Of a stretch of 64,000 nucleotides of DNA, positions 5,498 through 51,361 are shown one piece after another. Position 1 is the first letter of the stretch; each line of letters begins with the position of its first letter. A program made the position numbers and the translations under genes. The notes below the pieces were generated by a model that was given only the letters and a program-made list of their open reading frames with translations, did no database searches and was not told the origin of the DNA. This DNA comes from Pirellulales bacterium (GTDB taxonomy: Bacteria > Planctomycetota > Planctomycetia > Pirellulales > UBA1268), in contig JBILKZ010000001.1 in the NCBI GenBank assembly GCA_044376405.1, forward strand, positions 24,214 through 88,213, in the 5' to 3' direction.

Positions 5498-8401
5498 TTA
5501 ATCGACAAATTGAAACTCGGCGGTGGCGAGCAGGGCGTGGGCCAGCCGCTGCCATGCGTTTGTCGGCTGCGGTGTGCCGGCCGACTCGGCTGCCAGCCAG
5601 TCCTGCGCCTGCTGCCGTTCCTCTGGGGACGGATCGCGTCCGAGCACGGCCCTCCAGATCGCTGGGATTCGGGCGTCGGGGCACCACGTGTCGCCCAGAT
5701 CGCGGTCGACGCGGGCTGCGACCTGCCGTGATGCCGCCACCACCAAGGGCGCGTTGAGCACGGCCAGCGACTGCTGTGGCACGGTCGTCTTCGAGCGGAC
5801 ATGCACGGCGGTGTCGGGATTGGCGATGTCGAACACGCGGATGATGCCGGGCACATCCTGCCGGTCCAAGCGGCCGTAGAGCGACCGGGTGTTCATCGCT
5901 GTTTCCAGCAAGGGGTCGACGCCCGGGCCGCCGGCCCTGCGGTCGAGTGTGCCGGCGGCGACGAGCATGCTGTCCCGCCAGGCCTCCCAGTCGAGCCGGC
6001 GGCGGTTCGCCCGGCCATAAAGCCGGTTGTTGGGATCACCCGCCACGAGATCATCTCGCGCTGCGCTCGACTGCCGCCAGGTGCGGCTGCTGACGATCTC
6101 ACGGTGCAGCCAGCGGAGGCTCCACTTGCCCTCGTCGATGAACCGCCGCGCGAGATCGTCGAGCAACTGAGGATGGGAGGGCGGCTCGCCGCGGAGTCCG
6201 AGGTCGCCGGGCGTATTGATGAGCCCATGGCCGAAGTGGTGGGTCCATGCCCAGTTGACGATCATCCGCGCGGAGAGCGGATTTGCGGGCGAGACGATGG
6301 CCCGCGCCAGATCGAGCCGGCCGCTCGAGTCACGGGCCACGGCGGTGCCGCCGAGCAGCTTCGGCAGCCGCCGCTCGACCTTCTCGCCCGGCCTGCCGGG
6401 ATTGCCGCGGAGGAACACATGGCTGTCGACGGGGCGGTCGGCGTCGTGGAGCACCATCGCTCGCGGCGGGCCTCCCGCTGATTCGGCCAGATGCTTGGTG
6501 ATCTCCTTCTTTCGCTTACGGAGTTCCGTCTGTTCGCCGCGGGTGGCCACTCGCATCGCCTCGGCCCGCGGCACGACTAGCGGCGAGCCCTCCACGCCCA
6601 CGAGCGTGCGGAGGGCGGCGAGCTCAGCTGGTTCCTTGGGCTCCACGGCCGGCCCGCCGGCGGACTCGGGTGCCACTCGCGCCACGAGCCGTGCATACAT
6701 CTCGGCAAGTTGGCGGAGCGTCGTCGGCTTCGTCGACACGAGTTCCTGGAACACGATCTTGTTGACCACTTTTGGGTCGCGTGGCTCTGGGACATTCCCC
6801 CCGAGGTTCTGCAACCAGATGGCTACGGCCGCATCCACTGCCGGACCAATCTCGGCGTCGGGCTTGCCACGGGCCGCCGCCCAGGCCCCCAGAATCGGGT
6901 GCTTCGGCTCGGACTTGTCGAGCAGTCGCTTCAAGCGATCGATCAACAACTGCTCCAGTTCGTAGCCGTCGGCGAGCTTTGGAGGACGGTTGTCTGCTGC
7001 ACGCGGGCTCGGGCGGGCGACCTCGGAGAAGTAATCGGCGGCATGGGCCACCGCATCGCGGGTCGCCCTCGCATGCACCGCCGTCTCGTGGGCCGTGACA
7101 GCAGCCTTGAGTTCCTCGAGCTTCGTGGCAAATGCCTCGGCCTCCGGCCCCGGAGGCGGGTCGCCAATGACGGGGAGTTCCTCCGGAATTTTGCAGCTGG
7201 CGAAGATGCCGTGCAGAGCGTAGTAGTCGGCCGTGCTCACCGGCTCGTATTTATGATCGTGGCAACGGCTGCAGGCGACGGTGAGCCCCATCAGTCCGCG
7301 GGTCACGAGGTCGATTCGGTCGTCGATGATGTCTTGTGTGTTGCCGAGAAACGTGCGGCCCACCGTCAGGAAGCCGAGCGCTGCCAGATCGCTCCGCGGC
7401 ACCGGCGGCTCGATCCGGTCAGCTGCGAGTTGCAGCGTGACAAACTGGTCGTAGGGCAGATCGCGCTCGAGGGCGTCGACTACCCAGTCGCGATAGGTCC
7501 AGGCAAAGGGATACCGATGGTCCTGGTTGTCGAAGGCGTAGCCCATCGTGTCGGCGTAGCGGGCGAGGTCGAGCCATTTCCGAGCCCAGTGTTCGGCATG
7601 CTCCCGCGAGGAGAGGAGCCGATCAACCGTCGCGCGAAAGGCTGCGTCGGCTGCTGCCGCGCCGCCTGCTGCCGCTGCGCAGAACGCATCGACCTCGTCG
7701 GCCGAGGGGGGCAGGCCCGTGAGGTCGTAGAAGAGCCGGCGGATGAGGTCGCGTGGCGTCGCCTCTGGTGACGGTGCCAGGCCGGCGTTGCTGAGCTCAC
7801 TTCCGATGAAGCGGTCGATCGGGGAGACCGCCCAGGCGTCGCGGAGTGATGGCTCGAACGACGACGGTAATTCGGGTGCGGCAAGCCGCGCGGGCGGCGT
7901 GAACGCCCAGTGGCTCTTGAGCGAGGTGGCAAGTCTTTCGTCCATGGTGGCGGCGGGAGCAGGCTGCGTGGTGTCGCTGTCGCTGCCCGGACCGCTCCAG
8001 AGTGCGCCGGCTGTGACCCAGTTCTCGAGCGTGGCGATCTCGTCGGCGGAGAGTTTTTCATCGGGTGGCATCGCGAGCTCATCGACATGCCGCACGGCGG
8101 CCACGAGCTTGCTCTTGGCGGCGTCACCCGGCACCACGACCGGCCCGGTGTCACTGCCGGCCAGGAGCGCCCGCCTGCTATCGAGCCGGAGGCCAGCCTC
8201 CGCCACCTTGTCGCCGTGGCAGCCCTGGCACTTGGCCACCAAGAGCGGCCGCACCCGCGACTCAAAGAGGATCTCGAGTTCACGCGACGTGGCCTCGGCA
8301 GACACAGCAGTGGCCGGAGCGAGGGCCAGCACCCAGGCTGACCAGATCAGGCCACCGGCCAGGAAAAAACCACAGTGACTCAGGCGAGCGAGCGGGTTCA
8401 T
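5498..8401 (-). CDS. PSD1 / planctomycete cytochrome c (PSCyt) + DUF1549/DUF1553 domain protein
   Basis: Start chosen at the internal ATG that gives signal peptide MNPLARLSHCGFFLAGGLIWSAWVLALAPA (the track ORF extends to 8470). Heme-type motif CQGCHG. Long DUF1549/DUF1553-like body including CSRCHDHKYEP. Confidence 0.85.
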   Translation of the reverse strand: MNPLARLSHCGFFLAGGLIWSAWVLALAPATAVSAEATSRELEILFESRVRPLLVAKCQGCHGDKVAEAGLRLDSRRALLAGSDTGPVVVPGDAAKSKLVAAVRHVDELAMPPDEKLSADEIATLENWVTAGALWSGPGSDSDTTQPAPAATMDERLATSLKSHWAFTPPARLAAPELPSSFEPSLRDAWAVSPIDRFIGSELSNAGLAPSPEATPRDLIRRLFYDLTGLPPSADEVDAFCAAAAGGAAAADAAFRATVDRLLSSREHAEHWARKWLDLARYADTMGYAFDNQDHRYPFAWTYRDWVVDALERDLPYDQFVTLQLAADRIEPPVPRSDLAALGFLTVGRTFLGNTQDIIDDRIDLVTRGLMGLTVACSRCHDHKYEPVSTADYYALHGIFASCKIPEELPVIGDPPPGPEAEAFATKLEELKAAVTAHETAVHARATRDAVAHAADYFSEVARPSPRAADNRPPKLADGYELEQLLIDRLKRLLDKSEPKHPILGAWAAARGKPDAEIGPAVDAAVAIWLQNLGGNVPEPRDPKVVNKIVFQELVSTKPTTLRQLAEMYARLVARVAPESAGGPAVEPKEPAELAALRTLVGVEGSPLVVPRAEAMRVATRGEQTELRKRKKEITKHLAESAGGPPRAMVLHDADRPVDSHVFLRGNPGRPGEKVERRLPKLLGGTAVARDSSGRLDLARAIVSPANPLSARMIVNWAWTHHFGHGLINTPGDLGLRGEPPSHPQLLDDLARRFIDEGKWSLRWLHREIVSSRTWRQSSAARDDLVAGDPNNRLYGRANRRRLDWEAWRDSMLVAAGTLDRRAGGPGVDPLLETAMNTRSLYGRLDRQDVPGIIRVFDIANPDTAVHVRSKTTVPQQSLAVLNAPLVVAASRQVAARVDRDLGDTWCPDARIPAIWRAVLGRDPSPEERQQAQDWLAAESAGTPQPTNAWQRLAHALLATAEFQFVD

Positions 8402-14733: not shown

Positions 14734-14760
14734 ATTGCGGCCGCCGGTGTTCACGTCCGT

Positions 14761-14827
14761 AATCCCCCGGCTTGCGCCGGGGGCTTGTATGCGTGCATAC
14801 AAGCCCGGAGCGCGAGCGATGGGATTC
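14761..14827 (-). repeat. double-hairpin REP-like element, family 1 (inverted copy)
   Basis: AATCCCCCGGCTTGCGCCGGGGGCTTGTATGCGTGCATACAAGCCCGGAGCGCGAGCGATGGGATTC. It is the reverse complement of the copies at 28990, 35407 and 24325, and lies between the convergent glnA and SDR stops. Confidence 0.85.
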
Positions 14828-14835
14828 TCCGCCGT

Positions 14836-19854: not shown

Positions 19855-21375
19855 ATGCCATCCAGCCACGATCATCGACACGGCCAGTTCTGTCACAGGA
19901 CCCGTCGTGAATTCTTCTGGGAGGCGGGCGCGTCGTTCACGGGCCTGGCCCTGTCTGGCCTGCTCGATCAGGGGTTCTTCACGCGGCATGCCCATGCGGC
20001 AGGGCAGCTGGGCGGGGCCGCCGACACTCCGTTCACGAATCCGCTTGCGGCCAAGCCTCCGCACTTCGCGCCCAAGGCGAAGAGCGTGATCTTCCTCTTC
20101 ATGTATGGCGGGCCGAGCCAGGTCGACACATTCGACTACAAGCCGAAGCTCTACGGCCTCGACGGCAAGACGATCGATGTGAAGACAAAGGGACGCGGCG
20201 GCGAGAAGAGCCAGGGCCGGGTCGTCGGCCCCAAGTGGAAGTTCAAGCAGTATGGACAGTGCGGCAAGTGGGTGAGCGATCTCTTTCCACACATCGCGAC
20301 TCATGTGGACGACATCGCGTTCATCCACTCGATGACGGCCGACTCGCCGATCCATGGCTCGGCGATGCTGCAGATGAACTCGGGGAAAATTCAGTCGGGT
20401 GCTCCCTGTCTGGGCTCGTGGGTGAACTATGGCCTCGGCAGTGTCAACGAGAACATGCCGGGCTTCGTGGTGATGCTCGATCCCACCGGCGGCCCGATCT
20501 CGGGCGCGAAGAACTGGTCGAGCGGCTACATGCCGGCGACCTACCAGGGCACGCTCTTGCGATCCAAGGGTTCGCCGATCCTCGATCTCGCGCCACCCGA
20601 CGATATGCCGCTGGAAGCGCAGCGCACGATGCTCGATGCCCTTCGTGAGACCAACACGGCCCACCTGCTCTCCCGCGGCGACAACACGGAACTCGCCGCG
20701 CGGATCGCCTCCTATGAACTGGCCTGGAAGATGCAGGAGCACGCGCCTGAGGCGGTTGATCTGGCCAGTGAGACAGAGGAGACGAAGAAACTCTACGGAC
20801 TGGAGAACCCGCGGACGGCGGACTTCGGCCGGCGGTGCCTGCTCGCGCGGCGGCTCGTCGAACGGGGCGTGCGTTTTATCCAGCTCTATTCCGGTGGCGC
20901 CCACAACGACGATAACTGGGATGCCCACACCGATATGGAAAAGAACCACAATTTCCACGCCGGGAATACCGACCAGCCGGTGGCGGCGCTGCTCACCGAT
21001 CTGAAGCGGTCGGGCCTGCTGGATTCGACGCTCGTGATCTGGGGCGGCGAGTTTGGCCGTCAGCCGACGGCAGAGTATGCCGAGGGCACGGGCCGCGACC
21101 ACAACTCATTCGGGTTCACGATGTGGATGGCCGGCGGCGGCATCAAGGGAGGCGTGAGCGTGGGCGAGACGGACGAACTGGGCTCGGCGGCGATCAGCCC
21201 TGGCCCCGGCCATGGCAACGGCGACAAGCCGGGCTTCCACGTGAAGAGTCTGCACGCCACGGTGCTGCACCAGCTTGGCCTCGACCCCAACCGGCTCTCC
21301 TATTTTTTCGGCGGCCTCGACCAGAAGCTCGTCGGTGTCGAACACGTCGAACCGATCCGAGAGGTGCTCGCATGA
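19855..21375 (+). CDS. DUF1501 domain-containing protein
   Basis: ATG 19855 gives the Tat-like signal HRTRREFFWEAGASFTGLALSGLL (the track ORF starts at GTG 19822). WGGEFGRQP...GRDHN motif. The stop overlaps the next start (ATGA). Confidence 0.85.
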   Translation: MPSSHDHRHGQFCHRTRREFFWEAGASFTGLALSGLLDQGFFTRHAHAAGQLGGAADTPFTNPLAAKPPHFAPKAKSVIFLFMYGGPSQVDTFDYKPKLYGLDGKTIDVKTKGRGGEKSQGRVVGPKWKFKQYGQCGKWVSDLFPHIATHVDDIAFIHSMTADSPIHGSAMLQMNSGKIQSGAPCLGSWVNYGLGSVNENMPGFVVMLDPTGGPISGAKNWSSGYMPATYQGTLLRSKGSPILDLAPPDDMPLEAQRTMLDALRETNTAHLLSRGDNTELAARIASYELAWKMQEHAPEAVDLASETEETKKLYGLENPRTADFGRRCLLARRLVERGVRFIQLYSGGAHNDDNWDAHTDMEKNHNFHAGNTDQPVAALLTDLKRSGLLDSTLVIWGGEFGRQPTAEYAEGTGRDHNSFGFTMWMAGGGIKGGVSVGETDELGSAAISPGPGHGNGDKPGFHVKSLHATVLHQLGLDPNRLSYFFGGLDQKLVGVEHVEPIREVLA

Positions 21376-22382
21376 AAAAGGTGCCAGCCACCAAATTTAG
21401 GCAAGCTGCGTTGTCCCCCTGCCGATCTTTCCCAGATTTGGTGGCTGGCACCGTTTTCTTTTTGGCGCTGCTGCCCACGGTGACGGTCGCGGAAGCACCG
21501 CAGACCGCGGTGCAGACGGGCCCGCCCCGCCGGGTGATCGCGGCCGATTCATCGACGAAGACGATGGCCTCCATCGACTCCGACGGTCGGGTGGAGTGGA
21601 AGCTCCCGTGCGGGCAGATCCATGATCTGCACCTGTTGCCCGACGGTCACATCCTCTATTCAGATGGCTGGACGCGGATCGTGGAGCTCGATGAGCACCG
21701 CAAGCCGATCTGGGACTACAACGCGAAGCGGAATGGCAACGCCGGCCGGACGGTCGAGGTGCATGCTTTCCAGCGGTTGCCTGACGGCACGACGATGATC
21801 GTCGAGTCGGGGCCGGCCCGGATCATCGAGGTCGCTCGCGACGGCACCCTGCGGCACGATATCAAGCTGACGGTGAACGAACGGTCGGCACACTCCGACA
21901 CACGGAACGCGCGGAAGACCGAGGCCGGCACCTACCTCGTGGCCCACGAGAAGGATGGCGTTGTCCGGGAGTATGACGCCACAGGAAAGGTCGTCTGGGA
22001 GTTCGACGTGCCGCTTTTTGACAAGCCGAAGAAGGGGGGGCACGGCCCCGAAGCCTTCGGCGACCAGGTTTATTCGGCCGTCAGGCTCGCCAACGGCAAC
22101 ACGCTCATCGGCACCGGCAACGGCCACAGCGTGCTCGAGGTGACGCCTGCCAAGGAGATCGTGTGGAAGATCGAGCAGCACGACCTGCCGGGGATCGTGC
22201 TGGCCTGGGTGACACAGGTGAGCCGCCTCAAAAACGGCAACACGCTCATCGTCAACTGCCACGCCGGCCCAGAGCAGCCGCAGATCATCGAGGTCACTCC
22301 GGAGAAGCAGGTCGTCTGGACGTTTAAAGATTTTCAGACGTTTGGCAACTCGCTGCCGGTGGCGGTGGTGCTGGATCCATGA
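21372..22382 (+). CDS. secreted beta-propeller repeat protein (PQQ-like/ASST-like repeats)
   Basis: ATG 21372 overlaps the upstream stop. Repeated DG.(I/V).W / NGNTLI blades. The first 28 codons are supplied by palindromic element family 3. Confidence 0.7.
   Translation: MKKVPATKFRQAALSPCRSFPDLVAGTVFFLALLPTVTVAEAPQTAVQTGPPRRVIAADSSTKTMASIDSDGRVEWKLPCGQIHDLHLLPDGHILYSDGWTRIVELDEHRKPIWDYNAKRNGNAGRTVEVHAFQRLPDGTTMIVESGPARIIEVARDGTLRHDIKLTVNERSAHSDTRNARKTEAGTYLVAHEKDGVVREYDATGKVVWEFDVPLFDKPKKGGHGPEAFGDQVYSAVRLANGNTLIGTGNGHSVLEVTPAKEIVWKIEQHDLPGIVLAWVTQVSRLKNGNTLIVNCHAGPEQPQIIEVTPEKQVVWTFKDFQTFGNSLPVAVVLDP
21374..21458 (+). repeat. palindromic element family 3, copy A (inside CDS)
   Basis: Arms GAAAAAGGTGCCAGCCACCAAAT (21374-21396) and ATTTGGTGGCTGGCACCGTTTTC (21436-21458); 39-nt spacer. 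Confidence 0.85.
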
Positions 22383-24236: not shown

Positions 24237-24390
24237 ATCCCGTCGCTCGCGCTCAGGGCTTGGATGGTGATGACGGGGGAATCCCGTTGCTCGCGCTCAG
24301 GGCTTGGATGGTGATGACGGGGGAATCCCGTCGCTTGCGCTCAGGGCTTGGATGGCGGTATACAAGCCCCCGGCGCGAGCCGGGGGATTC
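24237..24390 (+). repeat. family 1 element with two extra 44-bp truncated tandem units
   Basis: ATCCCGTYGCTYGCGCTCAGGGCTTGGATGGTGATGACGGGGGA occurs at 24237-24280 and 24281-24324. A near-full unit follows at 24325-24390, ending TACAAGCCCCCGGCGCGAGCCGGGGGATTC. Confidence 0.85.
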
Positions 24391-24392
24391 TT

Positions 24393-26054
24393 TCACAACG
24401 CCATCCGCAACCCGATGTCGTCGTTGCCCTCGACCTTGTCAACGCCTGGGGCGACCGGGCCGCCGTCATCCTCGCCGTCGGGGCCGATGGAGTAGACGAG
24501 CAGCGCGTCGTCGGTCTGCTTCATGACCAGCGGCTGGTCGGCCGTGAAGGGATCGCGGGATGCAGGTGGCACCAGCTGGGCCGCCAGTTCTTCAAATGTC
24601 TCTGGCACCGCGCCCGACTCGAGCCGCTCTTTCGTCGCGGCGACGAGCGCCGAGGCGGCGCGGTGGTTGGCAACGCTGCGGGTCTGCTGGCGGAAGACGG
24701 CCCCCAGCGCCGGCACGATCATCGACGACATCATGCCCGGTGAGCGGTCTCGAGTCTGCGACTCGATGGCGTCGATGCGGTTTGTCAGTGCAGGGTAAGG
24801 CTCCGATCGGCTCGCTGCTGCCTGGTACTGCGTCATGATCGACCGGTAGCCCGCGAGGTCGGACGAGAGGAAGAAGACACGGTACGGAAGGGAGAGCGGA
24901 AGGGCACGGAGGGCGGATGGTTGTGGTTGCCCATTTCCAGCAAGGTCAATGAGATCGGGCCCGCTGCGTTGGTCGTCCGCCAGTTCCGCGAAGATGGAAA
25001 GCCCGAAGGCCTCCTCGCCGTAGAAATGGCTCGCCATGGCCGGCGGGGTTGTGACGAGATCGCGGATCTCGGGTGCGTCGAGAACCGCGAGATCGCTCTT
25101 CCGGAGCGTCGGCAGCACCTGCGCGAGCGTCTCGAGAGCCATAGTGTCGATCGCGATGCCGACCAGGTTTGAGATCAGGATCGGCTCACTCGCTGCGTGA
25201 CGTCCAATCCGCTGGATGCGGGCCACGTCGCGGAGGGCATCCTCTGCGTTGCCGTCGGCCGCCTCACGACGGGCGTCCAGCACGAGCAGGCGGGCCGCCG
25301 TGCGCAGCGATTGCATTTCGGGCAGCAGCATGTCGATGGACGGACGAGTCCAGTCACGCTGGAATCGGCAGGTGTCGCGATCGGCTGCGCGGCGAATCAA
25401 ATCGAGCGTGGCGGCATGTCTGGCGAGTGTTTCTGGCACGGTCGGATTGGCCACGTCCATCGTTGTCGCCGTGGTGAGCGGCGAGTTCACCTCCTTGATC
25501 GTGGGATCGGCGTCGAGGATCGCGAAGGCCTGCTGGTAGAGAGGAGCGGCGTTCTGCTGCTCTGGGACGACCGGCGGCATGTTGGTCTGCATCAGCTGCC
25601 CCGCCTCGAGCCGCAGGTAGGGTGCCTGTGCCGCCACGGCGTTGTCGATAATCAGAAGCGTGCCAAACGACACCGCCTTGGCTATCACGAAGGCCGCCGC
25701 CAGACCGACGACGGGCCAGCGGGCGGCCGGCGGCACGGGCTGGTCCGCGAAGGAAAATGGTGCGTACCACCGCCAGCCCAGCCCGGTCCAGGCGATCCAG
25801 ATGACGCCGATGCTCGCCGAGAGAAACGTGGTGAGCGCCGGGCCGAACCAGTTGGTCGGCAGGTGCTTCCCGAAGGCGAGAAAAGCCGTGAACCAGACGA
25901 ACGGTGCGAGTGCAACGACCGGCGGGATCACGGCCACGGCCTCGAGGAGCCGCCGCAGCCAGGGACGGTGCGTTTGCGCCGCGGCGGCCGTGCAGGCGGC
26001 TGACCAGAGCAGGCATGATGCGACGACGAACACGAAGAAAAGAAAGTGGCCCAT
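24393..26054 (-). CDS. polytopic membrane protein, unknown function
   Basis: 553 aa with about 5 N-terminal hydrophobic helices and then a large soluble domain. The start overlaps the stop of the upstream anti-sigma-like gene. Confidence 0.6.
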   Translation of the reverse strand: MGHFLFFVFVVASCLLWSAACTAAAAQTHRPWLRRLLEAVAVIPPVVALAPFVWFTAFLAFGKHLPTNWFGPALTTFLSASIGVIWIAWTGLGWRWYAPFSFADQPVPPAARWPVVGLAAAFVIAKAVSFGTLLIIDNAVAAQAPYLRLEAGQLMQTNMPPVVPEQQNAAPLYQQAFAILDADPTIKEVNSPLTTATTMDVANPTVPETLARHAATLDLIRRAADRDTCRFQRDWTRPSIDMLLPEMQSLRTAARLLVLDARREAADGNAEDALRDVARIQRIGRHAASEPILISNLVGIAIDTMALETLAQVLPTLRKSDLAVLDAPEIRDLVTTPPAMASHFYGEEAFGLSIFAELADDQRSGPDLIDLAGNGQPQPSALRALPLSLPYRVFFLSSDLAGYRSIMTQYQAAASRSEPYPALTNRIDAIESQTRDRSPGMMSSMIVPALGAVFRQQTRSVANHRAASALVAATKERLESGAVPETFEELAAQLVPPASRDPFTADQPLVMKQTDDALLVYSIGPDGEDDGGPVAPGVDKVEGNDDIGLRMAL

Positions 26055-26515
26055 CAGAGATCCCCCTGCAGGAAAGAGCGAGTATCGAGCACATGGAGTG
26101 TATTGCGGTGACGCGGGATGAGAGTGTCGTACGGCAGGCCGCCGGCCACCTGCACGGCGGGCGGGGGCATGACATCGAGCGTGATACCGGCCGCCTCGGC
26201 CCGCTGGGCGAACGAGAGCAGCGGTCGCTCAGTGGCGGCGCTGACAGAGCGCGAAGCGGCGTCACTCGACAGGATCGCGGCGATCAGCAACGACAGGGAC
26301 GTGCCCATCAAAAAGGTGACAGCCACCAAATCTGCGTATTCTGGGGAATGTCGTTGCGCAGCTTTCCCAGATTTGGTGGCTGGCACCATTTTCGGGAGCA
26401 CGTCGTCGACGGCCGTGAGCACCCGGGATCGTAGGGCGGGAGGCGGTGCCTGCCGCGTGCGATCATGCAGCAGCTTCTCGACGGCTGACGTGTCACGGTC
26501 GAATGGAGAGGTCAT
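26054..26515 (-). CDS. putative anti-sigma factor (single-pass membrane protein)
   Basis: 153 aa, located immediately downstream of and overlapping the ECF sigma gene. One TM helix (VAVTFLMGTSLSLLIAAIL). It contains palindromic element family 3 in frame. Confidence 0.5.
   Translation of the reverse strand: MTSPFDRDTSAVEKLLHDRTRQAPPPALRSRVLTAVDDVLPKMVPATKSGKAAQRHSPEYADLVAVTFLMGTSLSLLIAAILSSDAASRSVSAATERPLLSFAQRAEAAGITLDVMPPPAVQVAGGLPYDTLIPRHRNTLHVLDTRSFLQGDL
26309..26393 (-). repeat. palindromic element family 3, copy B (inside CDS)
   Basis: Arms CAAAAAGGTGACAGCCACCAAAT (26309-26331) and ATTTGGTGGCTGGCACCATTTTC (26371-26393). The spacer is related to copy A when read on the minus strand (GG[A/C]AAGCTGCG). 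Confidence 0.85.
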
Positions 26516-27093
26516 CGGACGGACTCCGGATGGGTGAGCGTGGCACGAATGTTTTCAATCGCATAGCGGTAGCGGCTGGCGGCGGTATTGATGCTCGTGC
26601 CGATGACGGCCGCGATCTCCACGAAGGTAAGGCCACCGTCGATTTTGAGTGCGAGCACCTCCCGCTGGGCTGGCGGCAATCCTGCCACTGCTGCGGTCAA
26701 CGCATCGTCGGGCGGTTCTGCCGGCTGCATGGTGAACCCGCCTGCCTCGACACGCCGCCTCGCGACGGTATCAATCGCCCGCCGGTCCACGTCCCGCCGC
26801 CGCCGTCGCCGGCTGACCGCATGACGCAGCATCGTGAAGATGTAGGCGTCGAGGTCGGTGATCCGGGCGAGCCGGTCGCGACAGCGGGCCAGCTCCACGA
26901 ACAGGTCGTGCACGATGTCTTCGGCGTCTGGCAGGGAATCGGTCATGGTGCGAGCGGTGTTGAAGAGGCGGACGGCGAGCCGGTCGTAGAGGGCCGCGAA
27001 GGCCTCCGGATCCCCGGCAGCCAGCTGTTCTCCAATCGTTGTGGGCGTTTTGGCCACCCTTCTCTCTCCGCCAGTCGGTGCAGTTATGTCCAA
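26512..27093 (-). CDS. RNA polymerase ECF-type sigma-70 factor
   Basis: Region 2 (DAEDIVHDLFVELAR...DAYIFTMLRHAV) and region 4 HTH (LPPAQREVLALKIDGGLTFVEIAAVIGTSINTAASRYRYAIENI). Confidence 0.85.
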   Translation of the reverse strand: MDITAPTGGERRVAKTPTTIGEQLAAGDPEAFAALYDRLAVRLFNTARTMTDSLPDAEDIVHDLFVELARCRDRLARITDLDAYIFTMLRHAVSRRRRRRDVDRRAIDTVARRRVEAGGFTMQPAEPPDDALTAAVAGLPPAQREVLALKIDGGLTFVEIAAVIGTSINTAASRYRYAIENIRATLTHPESVR

Positions 27094-28989: not shown

Positions 28990-29061
28990 GATCCCGTCGC
29001 TTGCGCTCAGGGCTTGTATGCGGAGAGTCGCATACAAGCCCCCGGCGTGAGCCGGGGGATC
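28990..29061 (+). repeat. double-hairpin REP-like element, family 1 (archetype)
   Basis: GATCCCGTCGCTTGCGCTCAGGGCTTGTATGC-GGAGAGTC-GCATACAAGCC-CCCCGGC-GTGA-GCCGGGGGATC. It forms an 11-bp hairpin and an 8-bp hairpin with a GTGA loop, and starts 7 nt after the cysI stop. Confidence 0.85.
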
Positions 29062-35406: not shown

Positions 35407-35478
35407 GATCCCGTCGCTTGCGCTCAGGGCTTTTATGGGGAGAGTCACATACAAGCCCCCGGCGTGAGCCGGGGGATC
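35407..35478 (+). repeat. double-hairpin REP-like element, family 1
   Basis: GATCCCGTCGCTTGCGCTCAGGGCTTTTATGGGGAGAGTCACATACAAGCCCCCGGCGTGAGCCGGGGGATC, located 43 nt after the upstream stop. Confidence 0.85.
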
Positions 35479-35563: not shown

Positions 35564-36322
35564 ATGCAACCTCGCGGAACGCTTCGACCGCTTCGTCGGA
35601 TCACCACCTGGCTGGCGATTCTTGGCTACACGCTCGTAGCCTCGGGCCTGCCGTTGCCGCTTGGCTCCATTTCTCTTGGGTTCGTCTCGCCGGCCGCCTC
35701 TGACTCGCCCGCTGCGAAGCGGCTGGCCGGCAAGGATCGCTCGCGGCCCTTTCCCTGCATGGACAAACCCTGCGGCTGCGCCACGGCCGAGCAGTGCTTC
35801 ACCAACTGCTGCTGCAATACGCCGGCGGAGACGCTTGCCTGGGCCACGGCCCATCGCGTTGAGCCGGCGGTGCTCACGGCGCTCGAGCAGCGGGTAGCTA
35901 GCAGCAGTCAGCTGGCGGCGAAGGCCACAAAGTCATCTTGCTGCTTGGGCAAGGCCCCTGCGGCCGAGGAGTCGTGCTGCACGATCGAGCAGCCCGCCGC
36001 GGTGGTTGCTGAAGACGGCGATCTCTGCAGCATGGATGCGTCACGTGCGGCCACGCTGTCAGCGACCGAAGAAGCAACGCCCGACAAAGTTGCTCCCGAC
36101 GACGAACCGTCACGCCAGCCGCGGTCGCGCGCGGTCACGCTGCGTGCCATGCTGGCCTGCGGTGGCATCGTGGCGGAGTGGTTCGCGGCCGGCGCGGCCT
36201 TGCCGCCGCCGCGGCTCGAGGTGTCTCTTCTGATGCACGTGCTCGACGTGTGCACGCCCGGCGACGAAGCGTGCGAATCGTTGGCTGTCTCTCCGGCAGC
36301 GCCGCCGCCCCGAGTGGCCTGA
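35564..36322 (+). CDS. Cys-rich membrane-anchored hypothetical protein
   Basis: ATG 35564, one N-terminal TM helix (ITTWLAILGYTLVASGL). Cys cluster PCMDKPCGCATAEQCFTNCCCN plus SSCC and SCC motifs. Confidence 0.6.
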   Translation: MQPRGTLRPLRRITTWLAILGYTLVASGLPLPLGSISLGFVSPAASDSPAAKRLAGKDRSRPFPCMDKPCGCATAEQCFTNCCCNTPAETLAWATAHRVEPAVLTALEQRVASSSQLAAKATKSSCCLGKAPAAEESCCTIEQPAAVVAEDGDLCSMDASRAATLSATEEATPDKVAPDDEPSRQPRSRAVTLRAMLACGGIVAEWFAAGAALPPPRLEVSLLMHVLDVCTPGDEACESLAVSPAAPPPRVA

Positions 36323-36512: not shown

Positions 36513-37649
36513 ATGACCATGCATCGTTGCGCGGGCCGCGGGCCCGTCCCAAAGAATCGATATGCCTTCACGCTTGTTGAACTGCTGGTGGTGATCGCCA
36601 TCATCGGCACGCTCGTCGGCCTCCTGCTCCCGGCCGTGCAGTCGGCTCGGGAGGCGGCCCGCCGGACGAGCTGCACCAATAACCTCCGGCAGTTCGGGCT
36701 GGCGATGTTCAATTTCGAGAGTGCCCGTGCGCACTTTCCGCCGACTGATGCCCGCGGCAGCGCCGCCGCGGGGCCGACGGCGGTCGGCGGCTGGTCCCTG
36801 CACTCGCGGCTGCTGCCGTATGCCGAAGAAGCGGCGATTGCGGATCGTTTCGACTTCAAACAGGCGGCTTTCACTGGGAACTTTTCGTCGCAGACACCCA
36901 ATGCCGCGTTCGCCGCCCTCTTTGCGACACCGGTACCGATGCTCTTGTGCGCCAGTGATCCAGCACCGACTGTCAACAAGTCAAACGGCTATGACTACGG
37001 CGGCAATAACTACATGGTGAGTATCGGCAGCGCACAGGCGAATGGGGCAGGCACGTATTACTGGGACTTTAGTAAACCCACCGATGGGATCGTCTTTGAA
37101 AACTCGAAGGTGCGAATCGCGAAGATCACAGACGGAACGTCGAAGACGGCCATTGCCAGTGAAGCTGTCCGCAGCATTGCCAACGGGACTGCCGACTCCG
37201 TCACGTTCGCTGCCGGTTCTCCGCCGCCGTTCCCCTACCAATATACGGCGAATGCCTCCTCGACCCACGGGTGGAACTCGACGACCTTGAAGACGAGCGG
37301 CATGACAAATCCGACCACACAGGAGGCCGATGACTTGGTCAACCGATGGACGGAACTGACGTCATGGCGGCACGCGGGCTCCCCCTCGATGCGTGGTCGA
37401 GGGCAGGCCTGGGCGGCGACGACGGCTGGCAACAGCCTTACGAACGGCTTCCTGCCGCCCAACAGCACGATCCCCGACTACGTCGTCCACTGGTCGGGCT
37501 TCTTCGGCCCGAAGAGTTTTCATCCTGGTGGTGCGAACGTGCTCTTTGGAGACGGCCGGGTGGTGCTCCTGTCGGACAAGACCGACAAGGACCTCCACCG
37601 CGCCCTCCACAGCATCAACGGCGGCGAGCATGTCTCCGGTGGTTTCTGA
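36513..37649 (+). CDS. DUF1559 domain protein with prepilin-type N-terminal methylation motif
   Basis: [44 protein letters not shown], and the C-terminal [14 protein letters not shown] typical of DUF1559. Confidence 0.9.
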
Positions 37650-37708: not shown

Positions 37709-38563
37709 ATGCTCCGATCGAATCGTTTCTATGTTCAACGTTGCGTTCCGAATCACGGGGGGCAACCCCGTTGGATCGCTCTGCTCGCCGTGCTCCTCGT
37801 CGTCGCGGCCACTCCATCCGCCCATGCCCACGACACCTGGCTGCAAGCCTCGCCGCGGCTCGTTCAGCCCGATGACGTCGTGCACGTCGGTCTCTTTCTT
37901 GGCAACCATGGCAACGAGCACCGCGACTTCAAGATCGCCGGCAAGGTCGGCTCGCTCGAGGGCGTGCAGGTGGGCGTGATCGGCCCCGACGGCCGGAAGA
38001 CCGACCTCGTACCCGACATGGTCGATCTCGGCTACGCGCCGAAGGAAGGCTTCTGGACGGCACGATTCGTGCCGGCCACGGCGGGCCTCCACTGCGTGGC
38101 CCACTACCGCGAAGGCGTTCGCCATGGGGCGATGGGATTCAAGGGAGGCAAGACCTACTTCCTCGCCTCCGAGTCGCTCGACAGTCCGGGCAAGCCGACG
38201 GCCACGCTGCCTGAGCCGCTCGGCCATCCGCTCGAACTGGTGCTGGAGAGCCACCCGGTGCTCGCCTGCGGGCCTGGCAAGCCGATCGTCGTGCGTCTGC
38301 TGCTCAAGGGGAAGCCCCTTGCCGATCAGGTCGTGTCGTTCATCCCGCGTGGGGCGACGCTCGCCGATGGCTTCGACCCGAATCACGAACGAAAAACCGA
38401 CGCGGATGGCCGGTGCAGCTACACGCCGCAGGAGGGCAACCTGGTGCTGGTTGTCGCGCACCACGTCGATCCCGAGCAGAAGGGGGAGGGGTATGAGAAG
38501 GCGAGCTACGCCGCCACCCTTGTTCTCGACGTGCCGCAGCGGTGCCCGTGCTGCGCGGAGTGA
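37709..38563 (+). CDS. DUF4198 domain protein (Ni/Co-uptake-associated periplasmic fold) ending in CPCC
   Basis: ATG 37709, signal peptide ...PSAHAHDTWL (mature N-terminus HDTW as in DUF4198), and a transthyretin-like C-terminal part (KPLADQVVSF...TDADGRCSY). The C-terminus is QRCPCCAE. Confidence 0.7.
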   Translation: MLRSNRFYVQRCVPNHGGQPRWIALLAVLLVVAATPSAHAHDTWLQASPRLVQPDDVVHVGLFLGNHGNEHRDFKIAGKVGSLEGVQVGVIGPDGRKTDLVPDMVDLGYAPKEGFWTARFVPATAGLHCVAHYREGVRHGAMGFKGGKTYFLASESLDSPGKPTATLPEPLGHPLELVLESHPVLACGPGKPIVVRLLLKGKPLADQVVSFIPRGATLADGFDPNHERKTDADGRCSYTPQEGNLVLVVAHHVDPEQKGEGYEKASYAATLVLDVPQRCPCCAE

Positions 38564-38636
38564 AAAGGGGACGCAGCTCTTTTCCTCGCCCCCGCAGGGA
38601 ACGGAGTGCGCAGGGAAAAGAGCTGCGTCCCCTTTT
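38563..38636. terminator. palindromic element family 2 (likely bidirectional terminator)
   Basis: AAAAGGGGACGCAGCTCTTTTCC (38563-38585) and GGAAAAGAGCTGCGTCCCCTTTT (38614-38636) form perfect 23-bp arms between convergent genes. The same arms occur at 50703-50790. Confidence 0.75.
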
Positions 38637-50338: not shown

Positions 50339-50710
50339 ATGACCCTTCATCAACGCCCCAGCCTGTTCAGCGTCGAACTGCGGACCGCCCGCTGGGAGGA
50401 ACTGCTCGAGTGGTATCGCAACGTGCTGGGCCTGCGGGTGCTCGTCCGCGTGGTGGACGACGGCTACGCGCTCTTCGAGGCGGGCGACACGCGGCTGGCG
50501 ATCCTGAATCGACCGTCACCAGGTGAGCCGAGCCAACGCTGGAGTCTGGGCTTCGAAGTTGTCGATCTCGACGCGGTGCACGCGCGGCTGGCGGCGACCG
50601 ACTCCGACGTGACGGCACCGAAACTTCACGCCGAGGGCTTTCGGGAACTGATCACCGCCGATCCCGACGGCAACCGCATCCGGCTCTTCTCATGGCCGGT
50701 GGGTCATTGA
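50339..50710 (+). CDS. VOC (glyoxalase/bleomycin-resistance) family protein
   Basis: ATG 50339, 123 aa. WYRNVLGLRV...ALFEAGDTRLAI...GFEVVDLDAVHARL...ITADPDGNRIRLF. Confidence 0.75.
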   Translation: MTLHQRPSLFSVELRTARWEELLEWYRNVLGLRVLVRVVDDGYALFEAGDTRLAILNRPSPGEPSQRWSLGFEVVDLDAVHARLAATDSDVTAPKLHAEGFRELITADPDGNRIRLFSWPVGH

Positions 50711-50790
50711 AAAGGGGACGCAGCTCTTTTCCAGGTCATTGAAAAGGGGACGCAGCTCTTTTCCAGACGGAAAAGAGCTGCGTCCCCTTT
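50703..50790. terminator. palindromic element family 2 with duplicated left arm
   Basis: GTCATTGAAAAGGGGACGCAGCTCTTTTCCAG occurs twice in perfect tandem (50703-50734, 50735-50766). The right arm GGAAAAGAGCTGCGTCCCCTTT follows at 50769-50790. The element covers the stops of both convergent genes. Confidence 0.8.
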
Positions 50791-51361
50791 ATTCGCCGGG
50801 CTCCATCTGCGTGCTGGTGGTGGCCGCGAAGTAGAGCGTGACGGCCGCCATGCCGAGGCCGAAGAGCAGGATCAGCGCGAGGGCAATCCCCATCGCGCAG
50901 CCTGCCCGGCCGTCGTCGGAGGCGAGCGCGGCGAGCTTGCCCTCGCTTAATGTCGCCGTCGGCGCGGAACCCGCGTGGATCTCCTCAGCACTGCGCGCCT
51001 GGTCTTGATTGACCGAGCTGTCGAGGGCGAGCAGGAAGCCCCGCGCGTGGCGGAAGAAAAGGATCGGGCAGAGCACGGCGGCTGTGAGGCAGACGGCGAG
51101 CGTCGTTTCATTCGAGAGGCCGAGGCCCATCACCAAGACCGCATACAGGGCCCCGGTGAGGATCACCGTGGCGCCATAATTCAGATAGATTGACCCGAGA
51201 TAGAAGCCCGGCTCCCGCGCGTAGGAGAAGCCACAGTGCGGGCAGGCATCGTGCATGCGAAACCAGCCGCGGAAGAGCGGCCCGATCCCGCACCGCGGGC
51301 AGCGGAGCTGCACGGCGTGTGAGAAAACGCGGAAGCGTGCGAAAGGCTCGGCGGGCCTCAC
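50789..51361 (-). CDS. DUF983 domain-containing membrane protein
   Basis: LRCPRCGIGPLFRGWFRMHDACPHCGFSYAREPGFYLGSIYLNY. The GTG at 51361 overlaps the upstream stop (GTGA). An alternative GTG at 51397 is the track start. Confidence 0.75.
   Translation of the reverse strand: MRPAEPFARFRVFSHAVQLRCPRCGIGPLFRGWFRMHDACPHCGFSYAREPGFYLGSIYLNYGATVILTGALYAVLVMGLGLSNETTLAVCLTAAVLCPILFFRHARGFLLALDSSVNQDQARSAEEIHAGSAPTATLSEGKLAALASDDGRAGCAMGIALALILLFGLGMAAVTLYFAATTSTQMEPGE

Follow-up and report, generated by a model that had tools for sequence, protein, structure and literature searches.

Introduction

The locus examined here raises the question of how a repeated palindrome can lie in frame within a conserved bacterial gene, and whether it persists there because it is tolerated, because the peptide that it encodes has been put to use, or because its hairpin is kept as a signal. 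The palindrome is found in the gene of a putative anti-sigma factor within a 64,000-nucleotide stretch of a Pirellulales genome, hereafter the window (G000:C113:24214-88213). The elements to which it can be compared, REPINs, are usually described as strictly extragenic, with insertion into a gene being lethal to the copy concerned.

Results

Two copies of one palindrome in the window

The segments 26306-26393 (copy B, in the putative anti-sigma gene) and 21371-21458 (copy A) are two copies of a single 85-88-nt palindrome, with 77% identity over 88 nt (comparison D3), and each forms an inverted repeat (I7, I10 and I16 within the window). The original prediction had described copy B as a second in-frame copy of the palindrome of copy A, which is borne out by this identity and by the reality of the host gene (see below). 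The arms of the two copies are nearly identical; the predicted count of only three differing positions was about right, with three differences found in the left arm (G/C at the outer base, C/A and T/C) and one in the right arm (G/A). The spacer has diverged, and as had been pointed out, the motif GG[A/C]AAGCTGCG is present in both copies when each is read in the direction in which its host gene is translated (GGCAAGCTGCG in copy A, GGAAAGCTGCG in copy B). The coordinates of the features are given in Table 1.

Host sequence outside copy B (26298-26306 and 26396-26404) extends the stem by nine pairs beyond a 3-nt internal loop, and a compensating A-T to C-G change in this outer stem was seen in G013 and G020. 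As a conserved helix the outer stem is doubtful: 6-9 of its nine pairs form in the close clade, and pairing is just 65% over all 16 sequences.

Table 1 Features of the sigma/anti-sigma operon and of the two palindrome copies (window coordinates unless a contig is given)
Feature	Coordinates	Strand	Description and basis
REPIN copy A	21374..21458	+	Immediately follows ATGAAA, the start of a gene (21372-22382) for a secreted beta-propeller protein
Third operon gene, 553 aa	24393..26054	-	Start overlaps the anti-sigma stop codon; syntenic in relatives
Host gene, 153-aa single-pass membrane protein, putative anti-sigma factor	26054..26515	-	Operon context, conservation
ECF sigma gene, upstream in the same operon	26512..27093	-	Pfam Sigma70_r2, Sigma70_r4_2, Sigma70_ECF; NCBIfam sigma70-ECF
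REPIN copy B, inverted REP doublet	26309..26393	-	In frame as host residues 41-69; repeat comparison, arms, RNA fold
Copy B left arm	26310..26334	.	AAAAAGGTGACAGCCACCAAATCTG (+ strand); distal arm in the coding direction, encodes DLVAVTF
Copy B left arm core	G000:C113:50525-50544		
Copy B spacer, non-palindromic, 33 nt	26335..26367	.	With GGAAAGCTGCG on the coding strand
Copy B right arm	26368..26393	.	CAGATTTGGTGGCTGGCACCATTTTC (+ strand); proximal arm in the coding direction, encodes KMVPATK
Copy B right arm core	G000:C113:50584-50603		
Outer flank	26298..26306	.	Complementary to 26396-26404 (GACGTGCCC / GGAGCACGTC); I7 and fold

The palindrome belongs to a REPIN population with a linked transposase

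The 17-nt arm core GGTGNCAGCCACCAAAT occurs 44 times in the 4.3-Mb genome (assembly of 4.31 Mb in 297 contigs, 65.8% G+C), compared with no occurrence of the reversed control, so the repeat is not due to chance. When up to three mismatches were allowed, 53 arms were found, comprising at least 19 inverted doublets as well as single arms, and the doublets fall into size classes of ~65 nt and ~79 nt between the outer arm ends. The consensus REP unit is GAAAAAGGTGCCAGCCACCAAATCTGGGCAA, and the palindrome consists of two such units, inverted around a short spacer; copy B has this structure, with inverted arms at 26310-26334 and 26368-26393 on either side of its 33-nt spacer. The stop codon of a coding-like ORF is found within 2-28 nt of at least 7 of 18 doublets, the usual placement outside genes, and the population in G000 is multi-copy and mostly extragenic, as in other REPIN populations.

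A 221-aa ORF on contig C19 is located between inverted arms that lie 806 nt apart (35853-35872 on the forward strand and 36639-36658 on the reverse strand). It matches Pfam Y1_Tnp (PF01797) with 40.1 bits (cut-off 23) and NCBIfam REP_Tyr_transpos (NF047646) with E = 8e-19 and 68 bits, the latter below the curated cut-off of 80 bits, and it contains the motifs PNHWHMVL (HWH) and RYVERNP (Y..RNP), giving a Y1_Tnp fold with the HUH motif and the catalytic Tyr. The layout of a transposase between REPs is found again in G187, where the inverted repeat has 28 nt, and in part in G156, so a cognate RAYT flanked by the same inverted REPs is seen on C19 and also in G187. No GTAG or CGTC tag was found at the REP end, which starts with T/G-AAAAAGGTGCC; these tags mark two superfamilies (the classes of Di Nocera 2013) and not REPs as such (PMC3733652). 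Based on the doublet population, the Y1 transposase between arms on C19 and the copies adjacent to stop codons, the palindrome can be identified from sequence as a REPIN, as PMC3116915 uses the term: a type of non-autonomous element that RAYTs mobilise. The original prediction had missed this identity. Sites that are occupied in some relatives and empty in others (copy A and the C30 copy, described below) are an indirect sign of the predicted mobilisation by the RAYT.

Some copies of the family are irregular. At G000:C136:41903-42015 and C138:35597-35650, the irregular forms comprise a REPIN whose left arm and half-spacer are tandemly duplicated, and a lone arm with its own A-run and T-run (GAAAAAGGTGGCTGGCACCTTTTTC) adjoining a second arm. 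Several REPIN copies supply or directly follow TAA or TGA stops (C19, C136 and C32).

At least two further REP/Y1-transposase systems were seen in G000. The 'family 2' palindrome AAAAGGGGACGCAGCTC has 106 arms genome-wide, occurs in the window at 38555-38586 and 50702-50801, and flanks, with inverted arms, two other Y1_Tnp genes (C150:7190-8130 and C96:22921-23737), and so is the REP belonging to a further RAYT system; a repeat of this kind also lies on either side of RAYT homologues in G160 and G020. The 'family 1' hairpin CCCCCGGCGCAAGCCGGGGGAT forms arrays on either side of a fourth Y1_Tnp match (C151:2948-3169), which suggests a third REP/transposase system. It is located at G000:C151:2684-3651 and, in the window, at 24237-24390, 28990-29061, 35407-35478 and 14756-14830; three tandem 44-nt units of it (24237-24368) lie directly past the end of the sigma/anti-sigma operon.

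The host gene is conserved and its reading frame runs through the element

The host gene lies directly downstream of an ECF sigma gene, with which it is apparently co-transcribed, and synteny extends over 17 genomes. The two genes overlap by ATGA at 26512-26515, consistent with translational coupling, and the host gene also overlaps the start of the 553-aa gene, for which no family match was found in Pfam or NCBIfam. Copy B encodes residues 41-69 of the host protein (PKMVPATKSGKAAQRHSPEYADLVAVTFL) and is followed directly by the hydrophobic stretch MGTSLSLLIAAILS, in agreement with the earlier assignment of residues 41-68 of a 153-aa protein to the element. Within the host protein, the hydrophobic stretch LVAVTFLMGTSLSLLIAAILS was read from the sequence as the candidate single TM helix, and the cytoplasmic part comprises just ~40 residues. 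The protein has no match in Pfam, and no curated anti-sigma domain (zf-HC2, RskA or other) was found, the NCBIfam antisigma model scoring 19 bits (E = 8.8e-4) where the cut-off is 100. Genomic context and topology make the host protein a putative anti-sigma factor.

Six-frame searches showed that the host ORF is intact, with no internal stop, in 17/17 species-level genomes of four GTDB genera. A protein search returned 188 metagenomic homologues at E <= 0.001 (the only source name among them being a 'Planctomycetia bacterium' MAG), and the 120 of these that were read are 143-164 aa long. Spurious long ORFs are common at 66% G+C, where 68% of random 85-nt frames are open, and the host protein is without a Pfam domain; both would fit an annotation artefact, in which the element would be intergenic between a short peptide and a separate membrane protein. 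This explanation is nevertheless highly improbable, given that the frame is continuous in 17/17 genomes despite 47-53% nucleotide identity between clades, that pN/pS of the N-terminal 40 residues is 0.50 (0.52 for all of the gene outside the element), that ATGA overlaps exist with the genes on both sides, and that the linker alleles described below differ by 42 nt, a multiple of three, with inferred flank deletions of 12 nt each. The original prediction would have failed had the ORF been non-coding or disrupted in relatives at this point, and it proved to be coding and undisrupted in all 17. The host gene is thus real, and the element appears to be translated, as judged from conservation.

Copy B is old and belongs to a series of linker alleles

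Intact copy B was found in 14/17 orthologous operons, from four GTDB genera, always with 77 nt from arm to arm and in the same frame, and it is present in ~110/120 of the metagenomic homologues. The genomes with the intact copy include those of a deep clade (G156, G159, G160, G187, G189 and G191) in which the host protein is 34-42% identical to that of the window. The insertion of copy B is old and common to several genera. In G007, a part-deleted remnant of 47 nt is left, and most of the stem is lost. In G187, another REPIN of this family is located upstream of the sigma gene, at a distance of ~750 nt (G187:C318:5559-5637 and 6391-6469), and the operon is bracketed by two REPIN copies that are possible conversion donors.

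Comparison with orthologous operons lacking the segment had been proposed as a check, and such operons exist: G016, G154 and 5/120 metagenomic homologues have an unrelated 'HDDR...' linker at the site and no element. The HDDR linker was considered as another structured repeat and rejected, since its folds are insignificant (z = -1.4 and +0.4). An allele that links the two forms was found in P0055 (VLRDDR-TKKVPATK...LVAGTFL-IGVLLATALS; L066), where the element stands in place of the central 45 nt, between preserved HDDR and IGVLLA flanks. Compared with this arrangement, the common 153-aa form has ~12 nt fewer on each side, by inferred deletions, and in-frame partial duplications of an arm are seen in P0053, P0061, P0070, P0104, P0032, P0064 and P0106. 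As HDDR, replaced, trimmed, duplicated-arm and part-deleted alleles all occur, the host linker is very permissive and readily undergoes slippage.

In a tree of the operon built without the linker, both deep clades bear the element. The element-free G016 falls within an element-bearing clade, as sister to G000 and G006 (99/95 support), and the similar allele of G154 is placed elsewhere in the tree. The nested position of G016 and the polyphyly of both linker types mean that the history includes recombination or repeated events; a single clean insertion is ruled out by this tree, and either a single ancient insertion followed by recombination or repeated insertion is possible.

Two partial matches were considered as further anti-sigma-like hosts and discarded. 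That in G024 is an intergenic copy in a spurious open frame. In G018 (G018:C827:2752-2922; L064), the REPIN instead ends an ORF, supplying its last residues (…SKMVPATKNG) and its stop codon; from its translation alone, we take this ORF to be TrpD-like (anthranilate phosphoribosyltransferase).

Copies within ORFs precede hydrophobic helices

Copy A is present in G000, G009, G006 and G004, and its site is empty in G012, G010, G005, G008 and G015, where an ordinary signal peptide, MKRLAATFCLVGFLLLSRQAVAE, is found. At 21372-21377 of the window, the stop codon of a DUF1501 gene overlaps the beta-propeller start (ATGA), and the A-run of copy A starts inside this junction. A third copy within an ORF (G000:C30:21609-21687; L074) lies between the ATG and the hydrophobic core of the signal peptide of a putative serine protease, presumed to be such from its GDSGGP motif alone. 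Conservation of the C30 copy extends to ~12 members of the genus; it is missing from G019 and half-deleted in G012.

All three copies within ORFs (3/3) are located just before a hydrophobic helix. The original prediction had stressed that copies A and B share both the frame and a juxtamembrane placement; the placement holds for all three copies, whereas the frame rule does not, as the C30 copy is read in another frame (MGKGASHQIW...FGGWHLF), and a common frame was rejected as a meaningful signal. Unusual freedom from stop codons was likewise rejected as the reason for tolerance, since 75% of frames through the elements are stop-free, compared with 68% of random 85-nt windows in this 66% G+C genome.

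Translation of the arm consensus in its different frames gave EKGASHQIW, KKVPATKSG and KRCQPPNLG for one arm, and LPRFGGWHLF, CPDLVAGTFF and AQIWWLAPF for the other. In every frame, the A-rich end is hydrophilic and contains Lys/Arg, and the T-rich end is rich in Phe/Leu/Trp; because the element is a palindrome, this polarity is the same in either orientation. Such a polarity corresponds to an n-region preceding an h-region, or to a positive-inside, N-in anchor, and would explain the sites before helices.

The arms of copy B evolve as DNA

Among eight close genomes, synonymous divergence was 0.093 in arm 1 and 0.035 in arm 2, compared with 0.235 in the rest of the gene, with non-synonymous divergence being similar in the arms and the rest; the resulting pN/pS values (1.05 for arm 1, 1.86 for arm 2 and 0.52 elsewhere) are indicative only, since each arm has just 6-7 synonymous sites and the genomes, being related, are not independent. 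Between the two deep clades, nucleotide identity was 76-95% in the arms, ~60% in the spacer and 47-53% in the rest of the gene. An alignment of 16 sequences showed 93.3% pairing in the inner stem, in which six pairs have changed on both sides (A-U to U-A, C-G to G-C, A-U to C-G and A-U to G-C). The covariation score of 0.147, compared with 0.098 in shuffles, was reached by 0/500 of them and is well above that of all slid controls.

The encoded protein changes in step with the DNA (VPATK to VPGTK and LVAGTF to LVPGTV, as well as K to E and L to S), and radical replacements (A to G, A to P, K to E, L to S) in one arm have their counterpart in the other. The states of the two arms are coupled in the homologues, with 79 being A/A, 28 being G/P and only 4 mixed. 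Half-converted arms are represented by G013, P0014, P0056 and P0095. Between the nearly identical genes of G013 and G020, three clustered substitutions make arm 2 the exact complement of arm 1. The intragenic arms also correspond to the REP variant that is dominant in their own genome, which is the TGG-type GGTGCCTGGCACC in G156 and G012, and the AGC-type GGTGCCAGCCACC in G160, G187 and G000. Shifts in REP class between related strains at orthologous RAYTs are known (PMC3686654). The low synonymous divergence, mirrored changes, coupled arms and genome-matched REP variant indicate a process at the level of DNA, and point to arms that evolve as DNA and not as protein, by short-tract conversion from other REP copies together with templated correction of one arm on the other. 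G020 stands apart in that its intragenic palindrome is perfect, yet the search pattern matched only one other arm of the family in its genome, and the repeat on either side of its RAYT homologues is a different one.

These patterns bear on the possibility that the peptide KKVPATK...DLVAGTF has been exapted as a juxtamembrane charge cluster and helix extension, serving membrane insertion or regulated proteolysis. The segment is in frame in four genera and ~110/120 homologues, it adds net positive cytoplasmic charge and lengthens the hydrophobic helix, and the same class of peptide precedes the hydrophobic core of two signal peptides, all of which would be expected of a useful peptide. However, pN/pS in the arms is at or above 1 and it is the synonymous sites that are conserved; the changes A to G, A to P (a proline at the start of the helix), K to E and L to S follow the DNA palindrome; element-free, truncated and duplicated-arm alleles exist; and the protease copy is in a different frame and hence encodes a different peptide. 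Exaptation of the peptide is accordingly considered improbable. Of the two alternatives that had been offered for copy B, a tolerated in-frame insertion or an exapted peptide, the first is favoured and the second disfavoured by pN/pS of at least 1, the mirrored radical changes and the element-free alleles.

A selected hairpin would explain part of the evidence

The coding-strand RNA of copy B folds with a predicted energy of -60.1 kcal/mol (z = -7.2) and has UUUUUG after the stem, and this hairpin lies 120 nt into the anti-sigma gene, the second gene of the operon. REP hairpins stabilise upstream mRNA in E. coli operons. Selection might keep the hairpin of copy B as a nucleic-acid signal, which could be a translation-sensitive attenuator, an mRNA processing or stabilising site, or a retained binding site for the RAYT; we regard this as unlikely, at perhaps one chance in several. 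In the attenuator or the processing/stabilising form, the sigma gene would be expressed in excess of the anti-sigma gene. Such selection would be consistent with the strength of the predicted structure (-60 to -67 kcal/mol, z about -7.2), with the T-run after the stem and the flagging of the distal arm by a terminator scan, with the conserved synonymous sites and compensatory double changes in the arms, and with the predominance of the hairpin-bearing allele among the homologues. It would also account for the perfect palindrome of G020, where the REP family is nearly absent from the genome.

Other observations argue against a selected hairpin. The HDDR alleles have no significant structure at the site (z = -1.4 and +0.4) and are maintained in two or more genera, which means that the operon can function without the hairpin, and in G007 most of the stem is gone. 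The double changes consist of clustered transversion swaps that allow no G-U intermediates, for which conversion is a better fit than stepwise RNA compensation. Finally, that the arms copy the REP variant of their genome is predicted by homogenisation and not by a local function of the hairpin. A more elaborate version, in which the intragenic REPIN is a selected, translation-sensitive hairpin that sets the sigma/anti-sigma ratio and has its arms rewritten in place by REP/RAYT surveillance, is somewhat less likely again.

Discussion

The evidence is best explained if copy B is a tolerated passenger in a permissive juxtamembrane linker that is homogenised by conversion, which we consider probable. 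The REPIN would have entered an older 'HDDR' linker, replacing ~45 nt, and would have been tolerated because the linker is permissive in both length and sequence, and also because a palindrome running from an A-run to a T-run gives a Lys-rich stretch followed by a Phe/Leu/Trp-rich stretch in any frame and orientation. Its arms would since have been held near the REP consensus of the genome by ectopic gene conversion and by templated correction of one arm on the other, with the encoded residues following the DNA and selection on the peptide not being involved. Against this reading, the palindrome of G020 is perfect though the REP pool is nearly gone, and conversion from the pool cannot act there now; the lack of a donor pool in G020 leaves room for selection on the hairpin. 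The frequency of the element, ~110/120, could also reflect a benefit and not mere tolerance.

The family resembles the REPINs and RAYTs described by Bertels & Rainey 2011 (PMC3116915) and Nunvar et al. 2013 (PMC3686654) in several respects: each genome has tens of copies of an inverted REP doublet with a spacer, stop codons are adjacent to most of these copies, a Y1/HUH gene is located between inverted REPs, and the variant differs between related genomes. It differs from the systems in these two studies in its host, which is of the Planctomycetia type, in having no GTAG/CGTC tag at the REPs analysed here, and in that copy B is intragenic, translated and common to several genera. The C19 transposase also falls below the NCBIfam RAYT cut-off (68 compared with 80 bits).

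REPs and REP dimers located wholly within ORFs, where they contribute 20-30 residues, many of them N-terminal, were surveyed by Di Nocera et al. 2013 (PMC3733652) and read as neutral inserts in linkers or loops; intragenic, in-frame REPs as tolerated inserts are thus already known. Unlike in that survey (PMC3733652), copy B has been traced through many orthologues, with element-free and intermediate alleles, and evidence of constraint at the level of DNA has been obtained from codon positions and covariation. The host classes also differ, the survey having stressed replication and repair genes. New here are the connection with a RAYT, the allele series of copy B and its depth, and the evidence from codon positions and covariation that its arms evolve with the repeat family of the genome.

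A second parallel is provided by the Rickettsia palindromic elements (RPEs), which Ogata et al. are said to have described in 2000, and which are reportedly in-frame palindromic repeats in the genes of functional proteins, translated and located at permissive sites. RPEs are longer than copy B, at ~100-150 nt. To our knowledge, no dedicated transposase has been identified for them, and no concentration at juxtamembrane or signal-peptide positions has been reported. They are like copy B in behaviour, as in-frame palindromic inserts, and are probably unrelated to it in sequence; the comparison is one of behaviour alone, and no homology to the RPE-1 to RPE-10 families is claimed.

If the arms of a selected hairpin were indeed surveyed by the REP/RAYT system, copy B would be the first REPIN recruited as an intragenic regulator and would give the first direct evidence of REP conversion in place. 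Whichever process keeps the arms alike, one small gene provides a well-sampled natural series of element-free, freshly replaced, trimmed, half-converted, duplicated-arm and part-deleted alleles, which shows how a mobile palindrome gets absorbed into coding sequence and suggests why juxtamembrane and signal-peptide positions accept it. The arms of the translated copy evolve in concert with the repeat family of the genome and drag the protein sequence along with them, making this locus a system for asking whether conversion, transposase action or selection keeps REPs uniform. For annotation, the lesson is that conserved peptide motifs such as KKVPATK...LVAGTFF in proteins of Planctomycetia derive from the repeat and do not represent protein domains.
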